Notes: generated by a model from the letters alone, not told the origin. Shown: positions 999 to 56,180, numbered from the stretch's first letter. The stretch: DNA of 64,000 bases from Gekko japonicus (GCF_001447785.1 NW_015174851.1:777604-841603); one strand, 5' to 3'. Translations and numbers: made by a program.

Positions 999-2006
999 AT
1001 GGATAAAAACACAGGAGCAAGACGATTATCTATATCAAACCCCTCAGGTATACCACAAATGAATTCAAAAGAGCTACAAAATTTGATTCAAGAATCAATG
1101 TTGGGTATAATTAATACAGCCATGGACACAGCAGTAGCCAAAGCGATACAACCATTACAAAAAAAAACTTGAAGAACTATCTAAGCTAGATGATATTTCA
1201 AATCGATTGATGATACAGACAGAGGAGATTAAAAAACAACTGGCTGAAAACAAGCAAGAGATAGCATCTTTAGTAAATATGACAAATAAATTGGAATTGA
1301 AAGTGGGAACTACGGAGGAGAAATTACAGGAGGTGGAAAATAAACAAGAATCCCTAGAAGAGGTGGTTATTAGATTGGAAATGGAAAAAGCGTCATATAT
1401 TCTTAGACTACAAAATTTACCAGAAAAAAAGATGAAGATTTAAAACAAGAAATAAGCCAGGCGTTAGCTGAATTCTTAGAGATAGAGTCGAGTGGAGAAA
1501 TAGAGACCAATATAGAGGCAGTTTATAGAGTTAATTCTGCCTATGCAAGACAAAACAAAGTTCCCAGGGAAATTCAAATAAAGTTTATAAGGAGAGACCA
1601 AAAAGATAAGATATTGTGAATGTCAAATGAAAAGACCCTCAAAATAAATGAAACACAAGTTAAAATCCTACGGGAGATACCATGGAGGGTCAGGGAAAAG
1701 AGATTGGAATACTCCATTCTGGTTGACCTCTTAAAAAGTCAGAACATCCAGTACAGGTGGCTGGTCCCAGAGGGTATCTTTTTTATTTATAAAGGTAAAA
1801 GATTTAGGATAAACTCAATATTTAAGTTAGAAGACTTTTTGGGAAAATATGGAAAGGATCTGGGCTGGCTAGAAGAATAAGAGGACTCCACAGAGTCAGA
1901 GGATGAATCTCAGAAACAAGAGGAGGCAGGTAGTAATAAAGAGGAAAAAGAAGGGGGAAAAAAGAGAAGTAGAAAGGGTCACAGAAAACAAGACAAAGAT
2001 GAGTAG
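999..2006 (+). pseudogene. L1 ORF1 (coiled coil, RRM, CTD), disrupted
   Basis: MDKNTGARRLSI... then coiled coil EEIKKQLAENKQ...LEMEKASYILRLQNLPE, RRM AVYRVNSAYARQNKVPREIQIKF, and CTD KILREIPW...IQYRWLVPEG. Frameshifts at the A-run near 1158-1167, near 1215-1222 and at the A-run near 1424-1430; in-frame stops at 1617-1619 and 1878-1880; natural stop TAG at 2004-2006. Confidence 0.88.
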
Positions 2007-5000
2007 TCAGGGGATAAAAATAATCTCTATTAATATAAATGGATTAAATTCACCGCAAAAGAGATCTAGAACCTATTTACAATTAAAAAAACAAAATGCA
2101 GATATAATCTGCATCCAGGAGACACACATTAAAAAAGATGATGCTCATTTATTAGAAAATAAAAAACTAGAAAAACTTTTTATGGCAGCAGACGCTACAA
2201 AGAAAAAAAAAGGGGTAGCTATATATGTTAAAGAAAAACTACAACCAGAGCTATTATTTGAGTCTGAAGATGGTAGAATGGTTATGATTCAAATATATAG
2301 ACAAAATAAATCGGTTCTAATTGCTAATATATACGCTCCAAACCAAAATCCAGAAAAGTTTTTCAGACAATTAAGAGAAGTATTGGTGAAACAAATGTGC
2401 AATGAAATCTGTATTGTAGGTGACTTTAATGCAGTATATGATAGGTTAATGGATAGGAAATACTCGGACAAGAAACAGAAACAAGGAAATGAACTGCCTA
2501 AAGCCTTCTTACAAACAATAGAAGAATTCAAACTTGTAGATGCGTGGAGAACCCAGAATATAGATAAAAAGGATTTTACTTATTACTCAAGTAGACACAG
2601 ATCGTGGTCTAGGTTGGACATGATGTGGGTCTCCGCAGAAATGATAAATGACGTGAAAGAGATTGAAATTTTGCCAGCAACTTACGCTGATCATAACCCT
2701 ATTGTATGTACTTTGACAGATGTAATAAAAAAAAGAAGATGGACCTTAAATACGTGGTTATTAAAAGATAAAAAATTTCTATTGGAATCCAAAAAGGCAT
2801 TTAAGATGTTTTTTAAAGAGAATATGACAGCAGAGGTAGCTATAGAAACTATATGGGATACATTCAAGGCATACTCAAGGGGATGGTTTATAAGGCAAAA
2901 TGCATGGAAGAAAAAACAAAAGGATAGGGAATTGAATTTGATAAAGGAAAATATAAAGGCAGAAGAAAAGGAAATGAAGAGAGCAAAGGATAATTTACAA
3001 GAAATTAAAAATAAAATTAATCAACTTCAGCACCATCTAAACTGTATTCTAGCTCAAGAAGTTGCAACAAAAATAAAATTCACAAGACAACGATATTTCG
3101 AGCAAGCTAATAAGCCAACTAGGTGGTTGGCGTATAAACTAAGACAGGAAAGAGAAAAGAAAACAATAAAAAGTTTAAAAGATGAGAAAGGACAGGAAAA
3201 ATTTCTTTTAAAAGATCTGAAAGAGGTCGTGGAAAACTTCTATGAGAAATTATATAGAAGAGATGATGTTAACTTAGAGGATGTAAGAAGCTATCTTGAT
3301 AAATACTTAGAAGGAAAGTTTACGGATGATCAAAGGAGGGATTTAAATGAGCGAGTAACTATGTGCAAAATTACAGAGGCGATAAGAAACCAAAATAATA
3401 ATAAAATGCCAGGTCCAGATGGAATTCCTATAGAGTTTTATAAGGCTTTTGAGGAGGAAATAGCAATACCGTTACAAAAGGTAATTAATAACATCTCGGG
3501 TGAGGGACAAATCCCAAGTTCATGGAGAGAAGCTCAAATTACCCTAATACACAAACAGGACACAGAAAGAAATGAAATACGCAATTATAGGCCCATATCA
3601 TTACTTAATGTCGATTATAAGATCTATGCATATATATTAGCGGCTAGGCTTAAGAGGGTCCTTCGACATACCATACATAAAGACCAAGCAGGTTTTTTGC
3701 CGAAGAAGCAGATTCAAGATAATACAAGAATAATTTTAAATGTTTTAGAATTCTATGAACAACATCCGGAAAAAACCATGGCCTTGATATTTGTTGATGC
3801 AGAGAAAGCATTCGACAATATTAGTTGGAGTTTTATATTAGAAAAATTAAAATATTGGGATTGTGGAGAAATTTTTTTGAAAATGGTAAGAAAAATATAT
3901 GAAAGACAAACAGCCAAAATAACAATAAATGGCAATTTAACAAATAATATTGAAATTCAAAAGGGCACCCGCCAGGGTTGCCCATTGTCACCACTTCTAT
4001 ACATTTTTGCTATAGAAATTCTGCTAACACGTATTAGACAGGACAATGAAATGAAGGGTTTAGAGATAAAAGGGGAAAATTATAAAGTACAGGCCTTCGC
4101 CGACGATATGACTTTTATTTTGGAAGAGCCTCAAAGTTCGCTGGATAAATTAGTTCTGAACCTAAAAGAATATGGTGAAGTCGCAGGATTAATAATTAAT
4201 AAAAAGAAAACAAAGATCTTATTAAAAAATGCCAGAGGAAATACAGAAAAGCAACTCCAGGACCTTTCAGGCTTTGCAATTCAAAAGAAGGTAAAATATT
4301 TAGGTATAGTCTTGACAAATAGGTGCTGCTCACTGTATAAGGATAATTATGAAAAATTACTTTCAGAAGTAAAGAAAGATTCAGAATTATGGAGAGGTTT
4401 ACATATCTCACTGATGGGGAAAGTCTCAACAATAAAAATGAATGTCTTACCCCGCATTCTCTTTCTATTCCAAACTATTCCAATATTAAAAAATCAAATC
4501 TTCTTTAAAAAATTGGAGAAACTAGTAAAGGACTTTATATGGCAACAAAAAAGGCCAAGAATAAAGCTAAAATATTTACAAGAAAGTAAATTAAGAGGTG
4601 GTTTAGCTCTCCCAGACTGGGCATTATATTATAGAGCGATGGCTATGAATTGGCTGCGGGACTGGATAGTACAAGATGACAAGAGAGTCTTGAGTCTTGA
4701 GGGGCATGACATACCGAGGGGGTGGCACTTTTATATGTGGTACAATAAAAACAGACCTGCCACTCTTTTTAAACAACATACTATCAGAGCGGCGTTATTT
4801 AAAATCTGGGAGGAGATTAAAGCAAAATACTATACAAAACTACCTAGGTGGATTTCACCCATAGAAGCACTACAATTACCCTCCTTATACATTAAATATT
4901 CAAAATGGAGATATGATGATCTTTTAGACTCAAAGGGAGAGCTGGCTTCGGAGAAATGGCTTGAAGAAAAGGGTACAAAGATGACTTGGTGGGAAAAAAA

Positions 5001-5748
5001 CCAACTAATATCAAGGTGGACAAAGGATAAACAAGTGGGCATTTATAATAGTCAGACTGATTTAGACAAGATATGGTTAAATACTAAAGAGAAATTTATC
5101 AAAGGAATGTATAATTTCTGGTTGGAGTTGAAAATGGAAGATGAACAGATAAAGCCATCTATGATAGCATGGATGCAGGATTGGGGATATAATTTGAGTG
5201 TTGAACAATGGGAAAAAGTGTGGTCAAGAAATATAAAATTTGTAAGAACAAGTGCCTTCAAAGAAAACATTATAAAGATGTTTTATAGATGGCATATTTC
5301 GCCGGCTAGGTTGAATAAATTCAATAAGAAAATAGGGGGAAAGTGTTGGAAGTGTAAATTATGTACTGGTACCTTCTACCATATGTGGTGGCTCTGTTCT
5401 AAATCAAAGAGATATTGGGCCATGGTGAAAGGAATTATAGATAAAATGTTGGGGAAAGATTTCCCTTTGAAACCTGAGTGTTGTTTGTTAAATGTATTAC
5501 CCGATTCATATAAAGAAAAAGAGTTGTATTTAATTATGCAAATACTAACCGCAGCAAGGATTGTATTCGCAAAAAGATGGAAAGAGGAATGTATTCCTTC
5601 TATGGACAAGATTGTAAGTAAATTATTCTATATTGCAGAAATGGAGAAACTAACCTATATTGTTGAAGAAAGAAATATGGAAAAGTATGACAAGTATTGG
5701 AAAAATTTTTATGTTTGGGTAAAACAGGATGGGTGTAAATTAACGTAA
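1999..5748 (+). CDS. L1 ORF2p: APE endonuclease, reverse transcriptase, C-terminal CCHC; 1249 aa, uninterrupted
   Basis: Endonuclease motifs SININGLN, IQETH, IYAPN, GDFN, SRLD, ADHN. RT motifs PGPDG, YRPISLLNVDYK, VDAEKAFD, GTRQGCPLSP, QAFADD, YLGI. Zinc knuckle CWKCKLCTGTFYHMWWLC. The likely start is MSSQGIKIIS at 1999. Confidence 0.97.
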   Translation: MSSQGIKIISININGLNSPQKRSRTYLQLKKQNADIICIQETHIKKDDAHLLENKKLEKLFMAADATKKKKGVAIYVKEKLQPELLFESEDGRMVMIQIYRQNKSVLIANIYAPNQNPEKFFRQLREVLVKQMCNEICIVGDFNAVYDRLMDRKYSDKKQKQGNELPKAFLQTIEEFKLVDAWRTQNIDKKDFTYYSSRHRSWSRLDMMWVSAEMINDVKEIEILPATYADHNPIVCTLTDVIKKRRWTLNTWLLKDKKFLLESKKAFKMFFKENMTAEVAIETIWDTFKAYSRGWFIRQNAWKKKQKDRELNLIKENIKAEEKEMKRAKDNLQEIKNKINQLQHHLNCILAQEVATKIKFTRQRYFEQANKPTRWLAYKLRQEREKKTIKSLKDEKGQEKFLLKDLKEVVENFYEKLYRRDDVNLEDVRSYLDKYLEGKFTDDQRRDLNERVTMCKITEAIRNQNNNKMPGPDGIPIEFYKAFEEEIAIPLQKVINNISGEGQIPSSWREAQITLIHKQDTERNEIRNYRPISLLNVDYKIYAYILAARLKRVLRHTIHKDQAGFLPKKQIQDNTRIILNVLEFYEQHPEKTMALIFVDAEKAFDNISWSFILEKLKYWDCGEIFLKMVRKIYERQTAKITINGNLTNNIEIQKGTRQGCPLSPLLYIFAIEILLTRIRQDNEMKGLEIKGENYKVQAFADDMTFILEEPQSSLDKLVLNLKEYGEVAGLIINKKKTKILLKNARGNTEKQLQDLSGFAIQKKVKYLGIVLTNRCCSLYKDNYEKLLSEVKKDSELWRGLHISLMGKVSTIKMNVLPRILFLFQTIPILKNQIFFKKLEKLVKDFIWQQKRPRIKLKYLQESKLRGGLALPDWALYYRAMAMNWLRDWIVQDDKRVLSLEGHDIPRGWHFYMWYNKNRPATLFKQHTIRAALFKIWEEIKAKYYTKLPRWISPIEALQLPSLYIKYSKWRYDDLLDSKGELASEKWLEEKGTKMTWWEKNQLISRWTKDKQVGIYNSQTDLDKIWLNTKEKFIKGMYNFWLELKMEDEQIKPSMIAWMQDWGYNLSVEQWEKVWSRNIKFVRTSAFKENIIKMFYRWHISPARLNKFNKKIGGKCWKCKLCTGTFYHMWWLCSKSKRYWAMVKGIIDKMLGKDFPLKPECCLLNVLPDSYKEKELYLIMQILTAARIVFAKRWKEECIPSMDKIVSKLFYIAEMEKLTYIVEERNMEKYDKYWKNFYVWVKQDGCKLT

Positions 5749-46642: not shown

Positions 46643-48229
46643 TTAACCTAATAATTCCATGTTGTTTTCCAAGAAGATTCCAGTGGATCCCATTACTTAT
46701 TCCCACATTCTACTGGTGGTTTAAATCATCACAGGAAGGAGTGACCAACAGCACACCCTGAAGCGGCCTCACTGCACACTCGTCCCATGGTCGGCCATTC
46801 AGATTATTGCTGTGGGGCAACCATGGATTGGGTGGTTGGGTGGTTTCTTTTTTAAAACATTGTATTTTGCATATGCGCATAAACACTTATTCAAAGCACC
46901 ACTCCTGGTTTGACAGCTGGAGGAGGCTTCCTCCCCCTCTGAAAAAACTCATATTTTCAATTAACCCTTTCCTCACCCTGTGCACTGCAAAGCTGTAGGC
47001 AGAGGGACTGGCATGAAAAAAGACAAAGGATGAGGTAATCAACATGAGGAGATGATTAAGAGAAACAGCTAAGACTTTGAGAGACAAAGGAATTCAGTAC
47101 AGATGGTTACCGTTAGGACATCTAGTGGTCAGTTTGGAGAATAAAACCTTTACCGCCTTCAATGAGGCTTCAGGCAAGAAATTATTGGACACAGTAACCA
47201 AACAAAAGGACGGAAGTGTTTGAACCAGGATATTATGTTTTGAAGAGATGTAGAGAGCAATTAACAGTTGAAAATGCAGAGTAAGTTAGAGTTAGTAGAT
47301 ATGATAAGTGGGAATTATAATTAAGGGTAAAAATAATAATACCAAGGAGGTGAAGGGTGTGTTCCCCCAAGACCTCCAATTAGAGGGAGGAGGGTCCCTT
47401 CCTGCTGTAGAGGTTCACTCTGCAGCACCCAGTATCGGAGGCAACCCTGTTCAACTTTCTTTTATAGGTATGGAAGAAGACAAATTAAGTTTAAAAATTA
47501 GGTGAGTAAGGAGGGAAGTCTGCAGAAGAAGTAAAGAAGTTTTGAAAATTTATGGAAAGAATGTAATAATGATTAGGTTAAGAACTAGAGGAAGTTGGGG
47601 ACTTCCGGTACGGCGCGTTAGCGGGCGGGTGGGAGCGTGCTGTGCTCCGTCCCCGCCTGAGCCACTTTTGCCTTTTCTGAGCCCCCTGCTTGTCGGGGGA
47701 GCTCGTCCAGCAACCTGGTGGTGGGAGCTGGAGCAGGGGACGCTTTTTTCTGGCCCCCCCACCTTCGGCAGGGCGGGGGGTGTTCGGTTACAGCCCCAAC
47801 GCGGAGGCAATTGAACGGAGGAACACGGCCGCCAGCCATGTTCCATTAAACGCGGCCATCCTTTTTTTAAATTTTGCACGGGAAGAACAGCTATCTGGAT
47901 ACTTAACGGTGCGAAGGAAAAAGAACCATAGCAACACGGAGGAAAGAAAGACATTTAGACTGAAACATGGAGAGAAGAAATGTAATTGTTGGAAAAGAAA
48001 GCGGAGAGGCGAAATATCCCCAAAACATCGGCGTCCAAATAGGTGAGGTAAACTGGCCGGGAGTATCGTGGACTTGATTAAAGGTTGATATTCTGATGGG
48101 GGAAAAATAAGTGTTGGATCTTTACCTTTTGAGTCGGACTTGTTTTTTGAGCTGGAATGAAGATAATAGGTGATTAAAGGGACTGTAGCAGGATAGTAGT
48201 GTGACTGAGCCTGAAAGAGGGGGACAGAA

Positions 48230-48838
48230 ATGGAGTTTACCGGGAGGAATGAGGTGGAAACTGACGAGGATATGGAAGCGGGAGAAATGACCATGGAGCA
48301 GGTTATTAAAGCTGTGAAAGAGGCGGTGATGCGAGGTTATGAAGAAGCATTCGTAGAAATAAGAAAAAAATTTAAACCACAACCAGAAGCAGAGGAAAAA
48401 GAAAAGCAAGGACAAACTACTGTGAAAGAGATACCAGAGGAGAGCCGAATAGAAAATAAGAACTGTGTCAAGGAAGTTAATAGGGAGGACTGTGTAAATT
48501 TGCAAGCCCCGTCACGGGAAACAGTGGAACCTAAAAGAAAAGTGTCTAATGGTAAATTGGATCCGCCAAAAGTACAAGCAAAAATTTTAAGAATTGGAGG
48601 CGGAAGGCATAAAAAGATTAAAAGAAGGAAGAGAAGGGCATGGAAGTTTAAGAATGGCAACAGACTTTGGAAGATGGAAGGATTGAAAAGCAGAGAGAAG
48701 AGGTATGGAAGACAAGGAACATTTAAAGAATGCAGGCAGGTGGATATGTTGAGAAAAAAATGTAGGCTGCAAATGTTTAAGAGAAAAAATAAGCATTGTG
48801 ACGAGGGGAATATTGACTTTTCCCAGATATATGATTAA
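48230..48838 (+). CDS. 202-aa acidic-to-basic ORF of the non-autonomous element, possibly ORF1-derived
   Basis: Open frame in the ORF1 position just after the 5' UTR; N-terminal helix MTMEQVIKAVKEAV and an NLS-like RHKKIKRRKRR; no recognisable RRM. Confidence 0.4.
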   Translation: MEFTGRNEVETDEDMEAGEMTMEQVIKAVKEAVMRGYEEAFVEIRKKFKPQPEAEEKEKQGQTTVKEIPEESRIENKNCVKEVNREDCVNLQAPSRETVEPKRKVSNGKLDPPKVQAKILRIGGGRHKKIKRRKRRAWKFKNGNRLWKMEGLKSREKRYGRQGTFKECRQVDMLRKKCRLQMFKRKNKHCDEGNIDFSQIYD

Positions 48839-49080
48839 CTGGATCTCTGACCTGAAACTTATTTGTATAAGAATGTATGGAAGCATATATGTATTTAAAC
48901 CTACTTAACTAGGAATTTATGTATTTGTATGGTTATTTTTTTGGGGGAAATAATGGTGATTAGGAGATATGTTTCAAGATAAATGGTGAGGGAAATATTA
49001 AGTTGAGGGGTAAAATGCTTAAATATATTGGATGATCATGTTTGAAAATTAATCTTAATGTTGGTGTGTGTTAAAATAAG

Positions 49081-49242
49081 TATAAAGTTTATTCAAGAAT
49101 TGGTACAAAATGAAATATTTAAAATGTTGTATAGTTTTAAAGATTTTCTATATGTAAAAAGTATAAAGTTTATTCAAGAATTGGTACAAAATGAAATATT
49201 TAAAATGCTGTATAGTTTTAAAGATTTTCTATATGTAAAAAG
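49081..49242 (+). repeat. 81-bp tandem duplication
   Basis: tataaagtttattcaagaattgg...tatgtaaaaag occurs twice with one mismatch. Confidence 0.92.
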
Positions 49243-50559
49243 AATGAAATTATTTAAATTTAAAAATAATGAAATGGTAAATTATTGGGGGGAAATGTTT
49301 CTTTAATGGAGAGGTTTGAATATGTGGGTGTTAGAGTAGAAGATGTTAAGGGGAAGTAGAAGGTTAATTTGATTTAGTAAATTATTTGCTTTTGAGTATA
49401 AAACATATAGGTTTAACTCCTGTTGTAAAAGTGATTAGAAATTGATTTTGACACTGATTAGAAGGATTGGATAGGTTTTAAGTAGGTTTAAAATTGTCCT
49501 TGTGTATAAAATGATGGATTTGTGTCAGGCATTGACTGAATTAAGATGGGGGAAGGCCTGGCAGATTATAAATGAAAGATATAGAGGAAATTTAAGGGGA
49601 TGTGGAGAGGGAAAGTAGAGATAAAGGTTTTCAACAGTATGTTAATAAAATATTAAAAATCATAAAGTTAAAAAAGATAAAAAGGGAAAAAGAGATAAAA
49701 ATTGATAATGAACTTAAACCCTATATTGAATGCATAGAAGAAGCAAGACATGGGAGTTGGTATTAGAACCAGAACTTTACATATATAAAGATGTCTCAGA
49801 AATTGTAAACTAGTTATGAACAAATAGCCAATAATCTTCAAAAGGTTAAAAAATATAAAGATCAGCAGTCAACATAGATTGGATACTAAGATGGTGAAAA
49901 TGAAAATCTTTATTGAAGAAATGTCAGAAAATATTAGAAATGTTACTCTGTGTTGCTGTGGAAAATAAGTGTTGTATAAGGTTTAGATATATATGTAAGT
50001 GTGTTGATGATTTTGCGTATGTGTTGGATATAGACTTATAAAACCCAATAAAAATAATAATAATAATAAAAGAACTAGAGGACGTTGTATGGCAGTTTGG
50101 TACAACAGGTAACGAATAGGGAATAACATAAAGAAAATGGAGAGTATTTATATCTTTAATTTTTAGTTTGATTCCTAGGAAGAGGAGAATATGTAAGAAA
50201 CAAAGTGTCCTTAAAAGATACATATAAAATATGTGGATATATGTACACTCAATAAAATATTAATATAAAAAAAGACAAAGGAGGCTTTTCAGCTTGCCCT
50301 CCCCCCTTCTCACCTCAGAGCTGAAAGCTTTCTGATGTACACAAAGATGCAGTTATGCACACATCGCTAATTGACTTTTAAAAAATGAGTCAAAATGGAA
50401 CATGGTGATGAGACTTCCCAACCAGGTTGAGCTCGCACCAGTAAAGTTCTGACATCAAGAAATGCGGGGTGAAATCACTGATATCCATAAACAAACTTTC
50501 CATGGTGCCTGATTAATCCACTTTTAAATTGGGGTGGAACACGGTGGTGATGATTTGGG

Positions 50560-51233: not shown

Positions 51234-54200
51234 AAGTGTCAAGAATCATCATCCCTCAACTCGTATCTCTCCGCTGAGATGAGCAAAAGTGAGGGGCTCC
51301 AACTCGAGGAAGGGACCCAAACCCACCCCGAGGAAAAGTCAGAGGACACCAAGGAACAGAGGCAGGTTCCACATGGTGAGGACTTGGAGGATGAGGAAAT
51401 CCTCAGTATGCCATTTGGCGGTGCCAAGGCTAAAGTAACCACCCGGTTGCAAGGGCCCCAGTGGGGCCAGTTCAGTGCCAACCTGCACGAGACTTGGACT
51501 TTTATTCGCCAGCGGGGTTGCACAAAGAAAGTAACTATGACAAACCTTCCATACCCGAGGATTATGGAATGGAGATCTGTGTCGAGCCCCCTCCCCGAGC
51601 CAAGAACTCTGCAATGGAAGTCGAAGGGGCTGGGGGTGGTGGAAAGACCGTGAGAACTTCATCAGCATCCAACTCAACTTACTCGAATGGGGTTACGACC
51701 AGATGATGCAGATGGTTGAGGACTCATTCAAAAAGTTACCAGCTATGGTGGCTGGGGTGGTGCAGCAGGAGCTTCAGCGCCAGGGTCCGGTGCCCATGGC
51801 AGCCCCAGTGCCGGTAGCAGTGGCTCCTGGGCCAGTCCCGGTGCAAGGGCAACCAGGACAGTGGAGAAATACTCCCCAAGGATCCTTGGGGCTGGGGTTG
51901 CCGGGTCCATGAGGCCAAGATGTTCATCACCCTGTAGAGCCCTTAGACACTATGTTTCATGGCACACCCAAAAAGCTGCAATTTTTTGTAGTGCGTGCCC
52001 AGAAGTTTGTGATGAACTGGGGCCACTTGTTTCTGAGCGAAGAGCTTTGGGTGGACTATATTGCATCCTGGTTGAGAGATGGGGCAGCAGACTGGTATGT
52101 GGGTCTGCACAACACTGATGGACTGGAGCTCCAATCAGTGGATGCCTTCATGTGGGCCCTCCGAGCCCAGTACGAAGACCCAAATGCTGGAGCGGATACC
52201 AGGGCATTTCTGCGCACCTTCAAGCAAGGCAAAATGTCGGTCTGGGCATATACGGAGGAGTTCAAATGTCAATCAGCCAAGATTTGTGGTTGGTCAGATG
52301 AGGTACTGGCAGAACAGTACCGGCTGGGGTTACACTCTGAGGTCAGAGAGATGGTCCTGCATAGCATGAACCCCATGTCCCTAAATGCATGGATGTGGGA
52401 AGCAGCAGACGCTGAAATTCGGCTGCGAACCATCAGGATCGATAATGCTACCTCAGTGGGTAAGACTGTCCTTGTGACACCAAAACCCAAAACCCTGCTA
52501 CCAAAGAAAGATGGGGGGTGGGACCAACGCATGAAGCAAGGTCTATTCCTGAAGTACGGCTTGGTGGTCCACTTCGCACCCTCCTGCCTGGGGGTGGGAA
52601 CCCAAGGAGCAATGACGAAAGCCCCAGAGAAATGATGTGCTGATACCCCAATGAAGAAAACCGTGACCAAACCAAAAAACCTAAGGGCTCTGCAAGCCAG
52701 CGTTCCAGTGAAGATGAAGATCAGCCAGTGGTAAACGCGATGGACCTGCACTAAGCGGCACGGAGCAGCAGGTCCTGAACCCCGAGCACCAAAAACAGTG
52801 AGCAGATATCCCCCCTTCTTTTTTGTCACAGTGACTGTCTTGAACCCAGAGCTTGGTACCCATGTACGGGTGCAAGCTCACATAGACTCCAGTTGTGGCC
52901 GAGACTTAATACACCCCTTTCTAGTGCTGGGACTGGGGGCAAAAGTGGTCCGGCTGGCAAACCCCATTATATTCACCCAAATTGACAGGTTTGCTATGAA
53001 AGAGCCCTGTAAATATGAGACTGTGCCTTTAAGAATGGGAACAGGGTCTCATTGGGAACACCGGACGTTCGTTATCACTGCAGCTGCAAGGTTCCCCATG
53101 GTGCTTGGGAGCCCGTGGCTCGATGGCCATAATCCATATGTTCTGTGGGATGAGGGGATGGTGAAGTTCATTTCCCCCTAAGTGTCTCACTCACATTTGG
53201 GAACAGTTGTGGGGAGGGGCCCCTCCAGATGAACTGCCCAGGGCATGCCTGGTGGCTGAGGAGATGGACCCTATCCCAGTGGACTACTGTGATCTGGCTT
53301 GAGTGTTCGAAGAAGAGGAGGCTGATGAATTGCCCCCCCACAGACACTCAGACTGTGCCATTGAGTTACTCCCAAACATGAAACTACCCAAAGGGAAATT
53401 GTATGCAATGAGCCCTCGAGAGAAGGAGGAACTACGCAAGTTCATTGACAAGAACTTGGAGCGAGGCTTTATTCGCCCCGCACCCTCCCCTTTTGCAGCT
53501 CCCATTCTATTTTGGGAAAAAAAGGATGGGTGTGTGTGGTTGTGTATGTATTATATGAATTACCATGGATTTAACACTGTTTCCACGACTAATGCCTACC
53601 CATTGCCGCTGATAAAGGACCTCCTAGAGGAAGAAGCTAAGGGGAAGATTTTCTCTAAACTGGATCTCAGAGATGCTTACTTCCGAGTCTGCATAAAAGC
53701 CGGAGACAAATACAAAACTGCATTTAACACTCCTTTGGGGCAGTTTGAATACAGGGTGATGCCTTTCGGTCTTCAAGGGGCTCCTGGGGTCTTCATGAAC
53801 CTTATAAACGAGGTGTTGCACAAGCATTTGTTCAAAGGGGTGATTGTTTACCTTGATGATATCCTGATTTATTCCCCTGATAAGCCGGCACACATCAAGC
53901 TGGTGCGAGAGGTCTTACAAACGTTGCACAAGCACAAACTGTTTGCCAAACTGCCTAAATGCGAGTTTCACTGTTCTGAAATTGACTTCCTGGGCTACCA
54001 CATTTCCCAAAGAGGTTTGGAAATGGATCTGGCCAAGGTTTGGGACGTAGTGGGGTGGGAGCCCCCTTGTACCCGGAGACAATTACAAGCGTTCTTAGGA
54101 TTCACCAATTTTTACAGGTCATTTCTGGCAAACTTTGCCCAGGTGAGCTTATCACTCACAGATTTATTAAGAACCAAGGGGAAGCGGCTGGACTGCACCA

Positions 54201-56180
54201 AACCTGGTGCTAGACTGAACTGGACTAGTGAATGTCAAGAAGCGTTCAACCGCCTCAAAGCCCTGTTTACCTCTGAACCTGTGTTGGCCCACCCAAATGA
54301 ACTGAGGAAATTTATTGTACAAGTTAACGCTTCCAATGTGGCTATGGGGGAGCGATCCTGCAAGAGGGGGAGGATGGGAAGCTTCACCCTCTGGTGTATG
54401 TGTCTCGTAAATTTAATGACACTGAGAGGAACTGGTTGGTTTGGGACAAGGAGGCTGGGGCTATTAAGTTGGCCCTTTCTACCTGGCGCCACTGGTTGGA
54501 AGGGGCACAGGTGCCTTTCGAGGTTTGGACAGATCATAAAAACCTGGAGGTTATGCGAACGCTGCGTAATCTGAATGCCAAACAGCTGCGATGGGCTGAT
54601 TTCTTTTCCAAGTTTAATTTCACTCTCCATTATTTCCCAGGGAAGTCGAACTCTCTGGTGGATACGTTGTCCCACCTACCACAACAAGACAGTCAATGGG
54701 AGGGATCACTCAACTCGATGTTCATGCCCTCACAATTGGGGTGGTGGTGTTAACACACAGCCAAGCGAAAGCCCAACCCCTAACCCCTCCTCTTGCAGTC
54801 TGGGAAGTGAAGTTTGTCTCTGCTCTTTCTGATGCCGACTGCCTCAAACTGAGTAAAGAAACAGAGGTGGAGGAGGCGTGTAATGGCTGTTGGTACCACG
54901 GTGCCAAGTTGTTTGTACCTTTGGCATTGTGTGGGGAAATTATGGCTACTGTCCATGGCACCAAGCTAGCAGGACATTTGGGATTTGTTAAATCATTGTA
55001 TTTGCTGCAGAGACAGTTTTGGTGGCCAGGAATGTGGAAGGATCTGACTCTGTTCGTTAAGTCATGCCAAACCTGGATTATGTGCAAGTCCTGCCTGGGG
55101 AAGCTACCAAGTCTGTTGCAACCCCTCCCCACTCCTAGTCGGCCGTGGGAAGTGATTTCCATGGATTTCATTATGGATCTACCCCCCAGTAAGGGAAAGA
55201 CTGTGATTTGGGTTGTGGTGGACTTGTTTTCAAAACAGGCACATTTCGTTCCTCTTAAAGCACTTCCAACTGCTCGCCTCCTGGCTAAAGCTTTCCTGCA
55301 ACATATCTTCCAGCTCCACACGTTGCCACGGAAGATAATCTCCGATCATGGCTCCCAATTTGTTTCAAAGTTCTGGGGGTAACTGATGAAACTTCTGGGG
55401 GTTGAGCAGGGGCTTAGTAGTCCTTACCATCCCAAGACGGATGGACAAATGGAACGGGTTAACCAAACCCTGGAGCAGTACCTCAGGTGTTTCACTAACT
55501 TCTAGCAGGACGATTGGCAGGGGCTCCTCCTTCTCACTGAATGTTGTTACAATAATGCCTGTCATTCATCTACTGGTGTGTCTCCGTTGATGGCTGTCTT
55601 TGGCTATGAGGCTCCACCTCTCCCTTTCCTTTCGGACACACCTGTCCCGAAGGGGGAAGTAGGTGAATGGTGCAAACGACTCAAAGATGCTTGGCCGGTG
55701 CTGTGTAAAACTTTGGACTCTGCTAAACAAGCATAGAAAGTTCAAGCAGATAAAAAAGGACTGACACTTGGGACGTCCAACCTGGAGATTCTGTTTATGT
55801 ATCTACCAAGAACATTAAGGAGTTGCGCCCAAGTCGCAAACTGGGTTGGAAATTTGTGGGACCTTTCAAAGTCATCCATAAGATCAATGAAGTGGCTGTA
55901 GAACTTGATTTGCCTAAGAACCTCAGACATTTACATTCTGTTTTCCATTTCAGCCTTCTTCGCCATGATCCGAGGCCTAATGTCTGGCGCCCGCAGCAAC
56001 CCAGCCCCCCACCCGTACTCGTGCAAGGCGAAACACATCATGATGTTGCTGATATTTTTGCCTCTAAGTTGAAATGCAATAAGCTGTACTATTTGATTGA
56101 ATGGGCTGATTTTGGACCTCAACATAGGGAGTGGGTGGTAAGGGAACATGTCTCCACCCCTGCCTCATTAAACACTTCCA
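50851..56180 (+). mobile_element. Ty3/Gypsy chromovirus (Sushi-like), decayed, 3' LTR missing
   Basis: Gag FHGTPKKLQFF..YIASWLRDGAADW; protease AHIDSSC..MVLGSPWL; RT LPPHRHSDCAIEL..KLDLRDAY..YRVMPFGL..VYLDDILIYS; RNase H VWTDHKNL; integrase HLGFVKS..FWWPGM..ISMDFIMDLP..ISDHGSQF; chromodomain YYLIEWADFGPQHREWV. Many stops and frameshifts. Confidence 0.95.

Follow-up and report, generated by a model that had tools for sequence, protein, structure and literature searches.

The element at 47598-50069 (plus strand) of the window, the whole 64,000-nucleotide stretch of Gekko japonicus DNA analysed here, is a full-length copy of 2472 bp and one member of a superfamily of protein-coding retroposons. 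Our analysis argues, with a probability of about 0.6, for a non-autonomous superfamily that combines an L1-derived head with a selected ORF of about 200 residues, encodes a reduced ORF1p, and depends on Pol II and, in trans, on L1 ORF2p.

The window copy is organized much as originally predicted from its sequence. Its CpG-rich head (47598-47890, plus strand), which begins with GGGACTTCCGGT at 47598, shares homology with the beginning of L1 5'UTRs in this genome and constitutes a putative internal Pol II promoter; CpG o/e is 0.80-0.83 and GC 0.52-0.64, compared with 0.25 and 0.42 for the whole window, and a YY1-like core, GCGGCCAT, is found at 47852-47859 (motif after PMC5381506). The remaining 5' UTR (47891-48229, plus strand) is purine-rich, fast-evolving and absent from distant subfamilies. 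It is followed by the single ORF of 202 codons (48230-48838, plus strand), intact here and conserved across the superfamily, whose product is acidic at the N-terminus (8 D/E and 1 K/R in residues 1-20) and strongly basic towards the C-terminus (28 K/R and 4 D/E in residues 126-190). After the acidic leader stands a conserved N-terminal helix (residues 22-48; 48293-48373, plus strand), and residues ~161-191 (48710-48802, plus strand) form a basic C-terminal motif and helix of the pattern K-E-x-R-H...L...K/R-L...K. The 3' region (48839-50046, plus strand) is AT-rich, C-poor and non-coding, without a detected ORF2 remnant; up to the end of the element (48839-50069) it comprises 1.2 kb at 27% GC, including an 81-bp tandem duplication at 49075-49236. 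The tail (50040-50069, plus strand) is L1-like and consists of an AAAACCC-AATAAA signal, with AATAAA at 50047-50052, and an A-rich (AAT)n stretch; the motif recurs in 61 of 64 family copies and in 3 of 7 full-length L1s. Two antisense ORFs, at 47550-47954 and 47788-48294, were dismissed as composition effects, such frames of at least 120 aa being present in just 3 of the 64 copies.

The predicted 18-bp target site duplication (TSD) lies at 47580-47597, within host half-L1 sequence, and at 50070-50087 (both plus strand); it reads AAGAACTAGAGGA(A/C)GTTG, and its two copies match at 17 of 18 positions, the 3' copy deviating once from the 5' copy on comparison of the repeats. The boundaries of the insertion are fixed, because the 18-mer stands once, as the empty site, in each of the three closest host paralogs (L171-L173). 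Nesting in a half-L1 was likewise predicted correctly, as judged from this empty site and the canonical ORF1 of the host paralogs. The host copy is 5'-truncated: its left part (47031-47579, plus strand) contains the end of a canonical ORF1 and the 3' UTR, its right part (50088-50267, plus strand) an AATAAA, and its own 15-bp TSD is found at 47016-47030 and 50268-50282. It belongs to a true squamate half-L1 family with at least 44 matches in this genome (best 40 of 396 candidates scored), with the head GGGGCGTGGTGGCTGAGCTTCCGG and without ORF2; several of the 11 paralogs inspected (L171-L181) are ~1.65 kb long and carry TSDs and a canonical ORF1. A contig in X1 that connects 47597 directly to 50160 may represent either the empty allele or a host paralog. 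Further downstream, at 51279-55382, the window contains a decayed gypsy-type LTR retrotransposon with gag-like, RT and integrase pieces.

How large is the family, and how uniform? A DNA search retrieved two full-length relatives of the window copy, at 91% and ~82% identity, and showed its first 290 nt to be common to many loci. Protein searches of this genome yielded at least 158, 136 and 151 matches with three queries, the second and third being one Gekko protein homologue and one distant copy, which brought in further clades; with the best 150 of 1379, 136 of 2423 and 150 of 1764 candidates scored, these counts are lower bounds, in which overlap between the searches is uncounted. The element is thus clearly multi-copy. 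Among 168 non-redundant loci, 71 have a TSD of at least 11 bp, mostly 15-18 bp, together with a poly(A) signal, at a median length of 2330 nt; the other 97, sorted collectively rather than one by one, are accounted for by truncation at the locus edge, N runs, nested insertions or an age beyond that of an exact TSD. After exclusion of seven copies with doubtful boundaries, 64 curated, TSD-bounded copies remained, with a median length of ~2.3 kb.

All 64 curated copies contain the ORF, starting at ~+500 to +640, followed by a 3' region that lacks long frames and has a median length of 1124 nt. They begin with a few variable extra bases, 38 having TTCCGG within 70 nt; 41 have the YY1-like core and 61 an AAA(C/T)nAATAAA tail. 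The features of an autonomous L1, an ORF1p with RRM and an ORF2p with EN and RT, are absent from this set: no copy matches ORF2 (tblastn, E 0.01), and none matches the RRM or CTD of ORF1 with either of two profiles, built on L1 ORF1 and on the ORF1 of the host HAL1 family, while as a positive control the ORF1 profile detects the ORF1 of the host family in at least 9 of 12 loci. The description of the element as lacking both RT and the ORF1 RRM thus extends to the family. Of 20 further loci selected by the head, 13 have the ORF, one has its start before a gap, and six are head fragments, interrupted or gapped; in none does an L1 ORF1 lie downstream of the head. Long open frames among the matches, considered as possible ORF1 fusions, turned out to reflect N runs, duplicated C-motifs or a nested ORF2 piece. 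The latter occurs in L248 (C8340, ~2884-4100, minus strand), where the family ORF continues, without change of frame, as the 260 C-terminal residues of L1 ORF2; this is probably a nested 5'-truncated L1, and possibly a template-switch chimera. In L203/L225, L236, L252 and P0005, either the basic C-motif or the N-terminal block is tandemly duplicated in frame, which suggests that both are modular, repeatable units. Four loci (L134, L137, L138 and L006) are head-only fragments of 50-300 nt, one of which (L137) apparently has a short direct repeat on both sides and no tail, possibly a tailless insertion; in another locus (L131, 1164-3100), a hAT-type DNA transposon with an open transposase frame of 640 aa resides in the 5'UTR of a family copy. 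The phylogeny of the copies is deep, with many concurrent lineages, each having near-identical copies of its own.

Across the superfamily, the ORF is under purifying selection. That its frame might be a product of purine bias was one reservation attached to the original prediction; shuffled versions of the ORF contain a mean of 15.2 stops, and none of 5000 is open, so the open frame is not an artefact of composition. Among the 15,910 codons of the coding frame in 79 copies, 84 are stops, a figure that counts natural terminators, whereas the two alternative frames contain 1201 and 1365; the core is free of stops in 52 of the copies, including 8 of 12 chosen by head rather than protein. Conservation in frame with dN/dS below 1 is found as anticipated: omega is 0.39-0.40 in the GY codon model of IQ-TREE and 0.50 overall in our own MG94 implementation with free kappa (2dlnL 348 versus omega=1). 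Shifted frames give 1.19 and 0.96, and six neutral simulations, run both with CpG excess and without it, give 0.94-0.99. Protein similarity was, however, the criterion by which most copies were collected, and this biases omega downward in a way absent from the simulations. On internal branches, selection is concentrated in two blocks, residues 20-48 around the N-terminal helix (omega 0.21, 2dlnL 128) and residues 161-188 of the C-motif (omega 0.27, 2dlnL 81), while linker and basic middle are at 0.62-0.67 (internal-branch linker, 0.67). Short terminal branches have an omega of 0.62-0.63 rather than 1. Over 15 pairs, 18 indels fall into the ORF, 90 into the similarly long 5'UTR and 180 into the 3' region; 8 of the 18 are multiples of three, and 10 are frame-breaking, as expected of dead copies. 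K166 is invariant in 70 sequences, and invariant residues are retained even at overall identities of 13-30%.

The connection to L1 is best visible at the two ends of the element. In pairwise alignment to family heads, the 5' ends of four of seven full-length L1s score higher than any of 15 shuffles (106.5, 90.5, 80 and 68.5 versus null maxima of 73, 56, 65.5 and 56.5), the other three lying within this null. A profile of the family head matches four L1 5'UTRs, three with known 5' ends, collinearly and at approximately equal offsets (nhmmer, best E 8e-5), compared with a single match at E 0.57 for the reversed profile. Judged by these alignments, which uphold the L1 character proposed for the head, it is derived from an L1 5'UTR, with a likeness that fades beyond ~230-300 nt. 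A simple BLAST search with the head of the window copy against 20 L1 loci gave no match, and neither these nor the 20 head-selected loci included an autonomous L1 with this head. The tail profile matches L1 3' ends, partly on composition, and its reversed control matches none; for the middle of the 3' region, nhmmer found no match on L1. The TSDs of the family show an (A)TY|AAxA preference, that is, a pyrimidine/AA cut, and resemble those of seven full-length L1s of this genome in both preference and length. An A tail and TSDs of 11-23 bp point to L1, and not to CR1, L2 or RTE. Taken together, these traits make L1 very probably the driver of mobilization. The window itself contains an intact ORF2, with EN and RT by Pfam, in a 5'-truncated L1 with a frameshifted ORF1 (1903-5748). 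This L1, the ORF2 of which (1999-5748) had been put forward for mobilization, need not be the partner, though of the L1 3' ends tested, its own matches the tail best (E 2e-4).

For the encoded protein, AlphaFold2 (70 sequences) predicts confident helices at residues 22-48 (pLDDT 88-97) and ~165-191, a weak helix within 124-158 and a disordered linker; the model has isolated helices rather than a packed fold (mean pLDDT 62, pTM 0.24). A homotrimer prediction for residues 12-58 scored 0.06, in a run that left the alignment unused, and speaks neither for nor against a trimer. Pfam yielded no family above cut-off for the protein of the window copy and none matching more than one of 70 members; PF17489 did not match, the PDB sequence search and the ESM Atlas gave no usable match, and Foldseek with the isolated-helix model returned none at E 0.001. 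Kinship with the deltavirus antigen, considered for its likeness of ~200 aa with a helix and a basic region, was discarded in view of the missing Pfam match in the 70 members. Word-indexed protein searches produced 0 matches with A1, 2 with A2 and 0 for a gecko-type ORF1, and when 1.84 billion representative proteins were searched with a profile, five homologues emerged, all from Gekko japonicus or Gekko kuhli. Family copies also make their way into gene annotations, as false or fused proteins (P0001-P0005). In P0001 (XP_015271037.1), a uronyl 2-sulfotransferase model starts with ~150 residues of the family ORF, a truncated fragment, which may be a mis-annotation or an exonization.

The original prediction called this protein an orphan, which agrees with the lack of Pfam and PDB matches and may be too strong a term in light of the first helix. 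In a whole-profile HHalign comparison, its best match is the helix preceding the coiled coil of L1 ORF1p, a borderline pairing at E=0.043 and a probability of 1.2%. A helix-only profile, with the region hand-picked after inspection, scores 19.4 (E 0.007, probability 5%), exceeding all 40 column shuffles and the reversed profile; earlier, shallower alignments gave E=0.14-0.36, and single-sequence HMM scores against ORF1 were at most 7 bits. The helix has the same position within the element as the first helix of ORF1, and expansions of four residues occur at the matching place in both alignments. In the profile comparison, the C-motif has no ORF1 counterpart. An origin of the ORF from frames of the L1 5'UTR was also considered and abandoned, none reaching 6 bits in 20 L1 loci. 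On balance, we lean slightly towards an ORF1 origin of the first helix.

How could such an element have evolved, and what might it gain from its protein? In the scenario we favour, an ancestral L1 would have lost ORF2 together with the coiled coil, RRM and CTD of ORF1, retaining the first ORF1 helix and gaining or elaborating the basic tail. The element would be transcribed by Pol II from its own head and its single ORF translated; the helix could then allow assembly, either with further copies of itself or with L1 ORF1p, and the basic tail could hold the element's own RNA in cis. In this manner, the RNA would enter L1 particles and capture ORF2p, to be reverse transcribed by L1 ORF2p at its A tail. 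The odds that the protein indeed acts through an assembly helix and an RNA-holding basic tail, a role read from its sequence, appear even to us.

An alternative that we rate as considerably less probable accepts mobilization by L1, with a protein unrelated to ORF1p, captured or formed de novo, that could serve as an adaptor to ORF2p or the ribosome, in nuclear or nucleolar targeting, or in counter-silencing. The absence of Pfam, PDB, Atlas and fold matches, the mere five homologues from two Gekko species, and the C-motif as a second conserved block foreign to ORF1 would be in line with such an origin, and amphipathic helices can be alike by chance, which weighs on a borderline match. However, this best whole-profile match is to precisely the ORF1 helix that occupies the corresponding position, the genome contains other ORF1-only elements, and the head is that of an L1 5'UTR, making an ORF1 derivative its parsimonious occupant. 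Could the frame instead be kept for the benefit of translation to the RNA, via stability or a ribosome near nascent ORF2p, with the amino acids hardly mattering? The near-neutral linker and basic middle, and the disorder predicted for most of the protein, can be read in this way; the two blocks under strong constraint on internal branches and the persistence of invariant residues in otherwise diverged members speak against it, rendering this explanation improbable. Least plausible of all is an origin of the copies as processed pseudogenes of a host gene, or as decayed repeats whose open frame arose by chance. Retrocopies, too, are marked by poly(A) and TSDs, and the annotated protein P0001 includes family sequence; yet this is a sulfotransferase model preceded by a truncated family fragment, the matches seen are single-exon units with an L1-derived head, the open frame is unexplained by composition, and the deep tree shows selection on internal branches and concurrent lineages with near-identical copies. 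Beside the preferred reading of a reduced ORF1p, we entertain only tentatively that these are old, still active L1 parasites whose protein is a new kind of adaptor instead of a working ORF1p and either hijacks the L1 particle or protects the element from silencing; if so, they would offer a minimal natural tool for studying how the cis-preference of L1 is broken.

Recent insertion is apparent in at least one lineage. Young subfamily copies are 98.9-99.8% identical, 9 of 68 copies are at least 98% identical to a neighbour, and in one subfamily the protein is the same at six loci. At L076, four RNA reads of run X3 lack precisely the element plus one copy of the TSD; the ends of the gap, AA..CA, are not those of a splice, and the filled site is present in a contig of X6; this insertion is recent, and its empty allele still exists. 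The L076 stretch has 367, 110 and 341 reads, mostly 99% alike, in three RNA runs of one study, and read depth is greater inside than outside the element in X4 and X5; several copies or host introns may be the source of these reads, and there is no pile-up of read starts at L076 that would indicate a transcription start. RNA from the window copy is essentially absent, with 2 of 131 RNA reads at 99% or more and no RNA run listed as carrying it.

Where does the superfamily stand among known retroposons? The view that the element is neither a Pol III SINE nor a standard half-L1 proved accurate on both counts. It contains no tRNA and no notable Rfam match (one at E 0.59), and its ORF is under selection. 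Half-L1 elements (HAL1) were reportedly described by Smit in 1999 and by Bao and Jurka in 2010. According to PMC5753468, PMC5322556 and PMC5786205, they have an L1-derived 5' end, a single ORF encoding ORF1p, no ORF2, poly(A) and TSDs, and are inferred to depend on the RT and EN of L1. Our family shares the L1-derived 5' end, the single ORF, the lack of ORF2, the poly(A) tail and the TSDs, but differs in its protein of ~200 aa, with undetectable coiled coil, RRM and CTD (0/64) and a basic C-terminal motif, and in the 1.1-kb AT-rich region 3' of the ORF. We do not file it as HAL1 because its ORF is not recognized as ORF1p, in an assay that does recognize the host's. That host half-L1 of ~1.65 kb is likewise an RT-less, TSD-bounded and poly(A)-tailed L1 derivative of the same genome, but has a canonical ORF1 and an unrelated head, and there is no DNA similarity between the two.

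Among autonomous elements, the lizard clade-1 L1s, with the start consensus GACTTCCGGTGN8ATGGCG in Anolis according to PMC5381506, invite comparison with the window copy, which starts GGGACTTCCGGTACGGCG. They resemble the family in the 5' extremity GACTTCCGGT, the conserved CpG-rich head and an A-rich ORF, but are autonomous, with a 5'UTR about twice as long, an ORF1 with CC-RRM-CTD, and an ORF2. The exact N8-ATGGCG consensus has six sites in this genome (L267-L272), none in an L1; they are part of an unrelated short repeat with TTGGCAACCCT at its end. For HeT-A (Jockey), HAL1 and Ag-Sponge (CR1), the proteins have been suggested to multimerize with those of the autonomous partner (PMC5786205), and the assembly model considered above is adopted from these. 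HeT-A and Ag-Sponge are, like the present family, protein-coding, RT-less LINE derivatives, but of other LINE clades and hosts, and their protein is the equivalent of the partner's ORF1p, whereas that of the family would be at most a one-helix relic. Our literature searches brought up no description of the family, and it may be catalogued in Repbase or Dfam, or in Bao and Jurka (2010). Its parallel lineages, at 13-30% identity, still keep two short selected blocks and thus provide a natural test case, 200 residues long, of how a protein of its own benefits a non-autonomous retroposon, and of the role of the poorly understood N-terminus of ORF1p. To our knowledge, the known protein-coding LINE parasites retain a recognizable ORF1p; here stands a superfamily without any recognizable RNA-binding domain of ORF1p.
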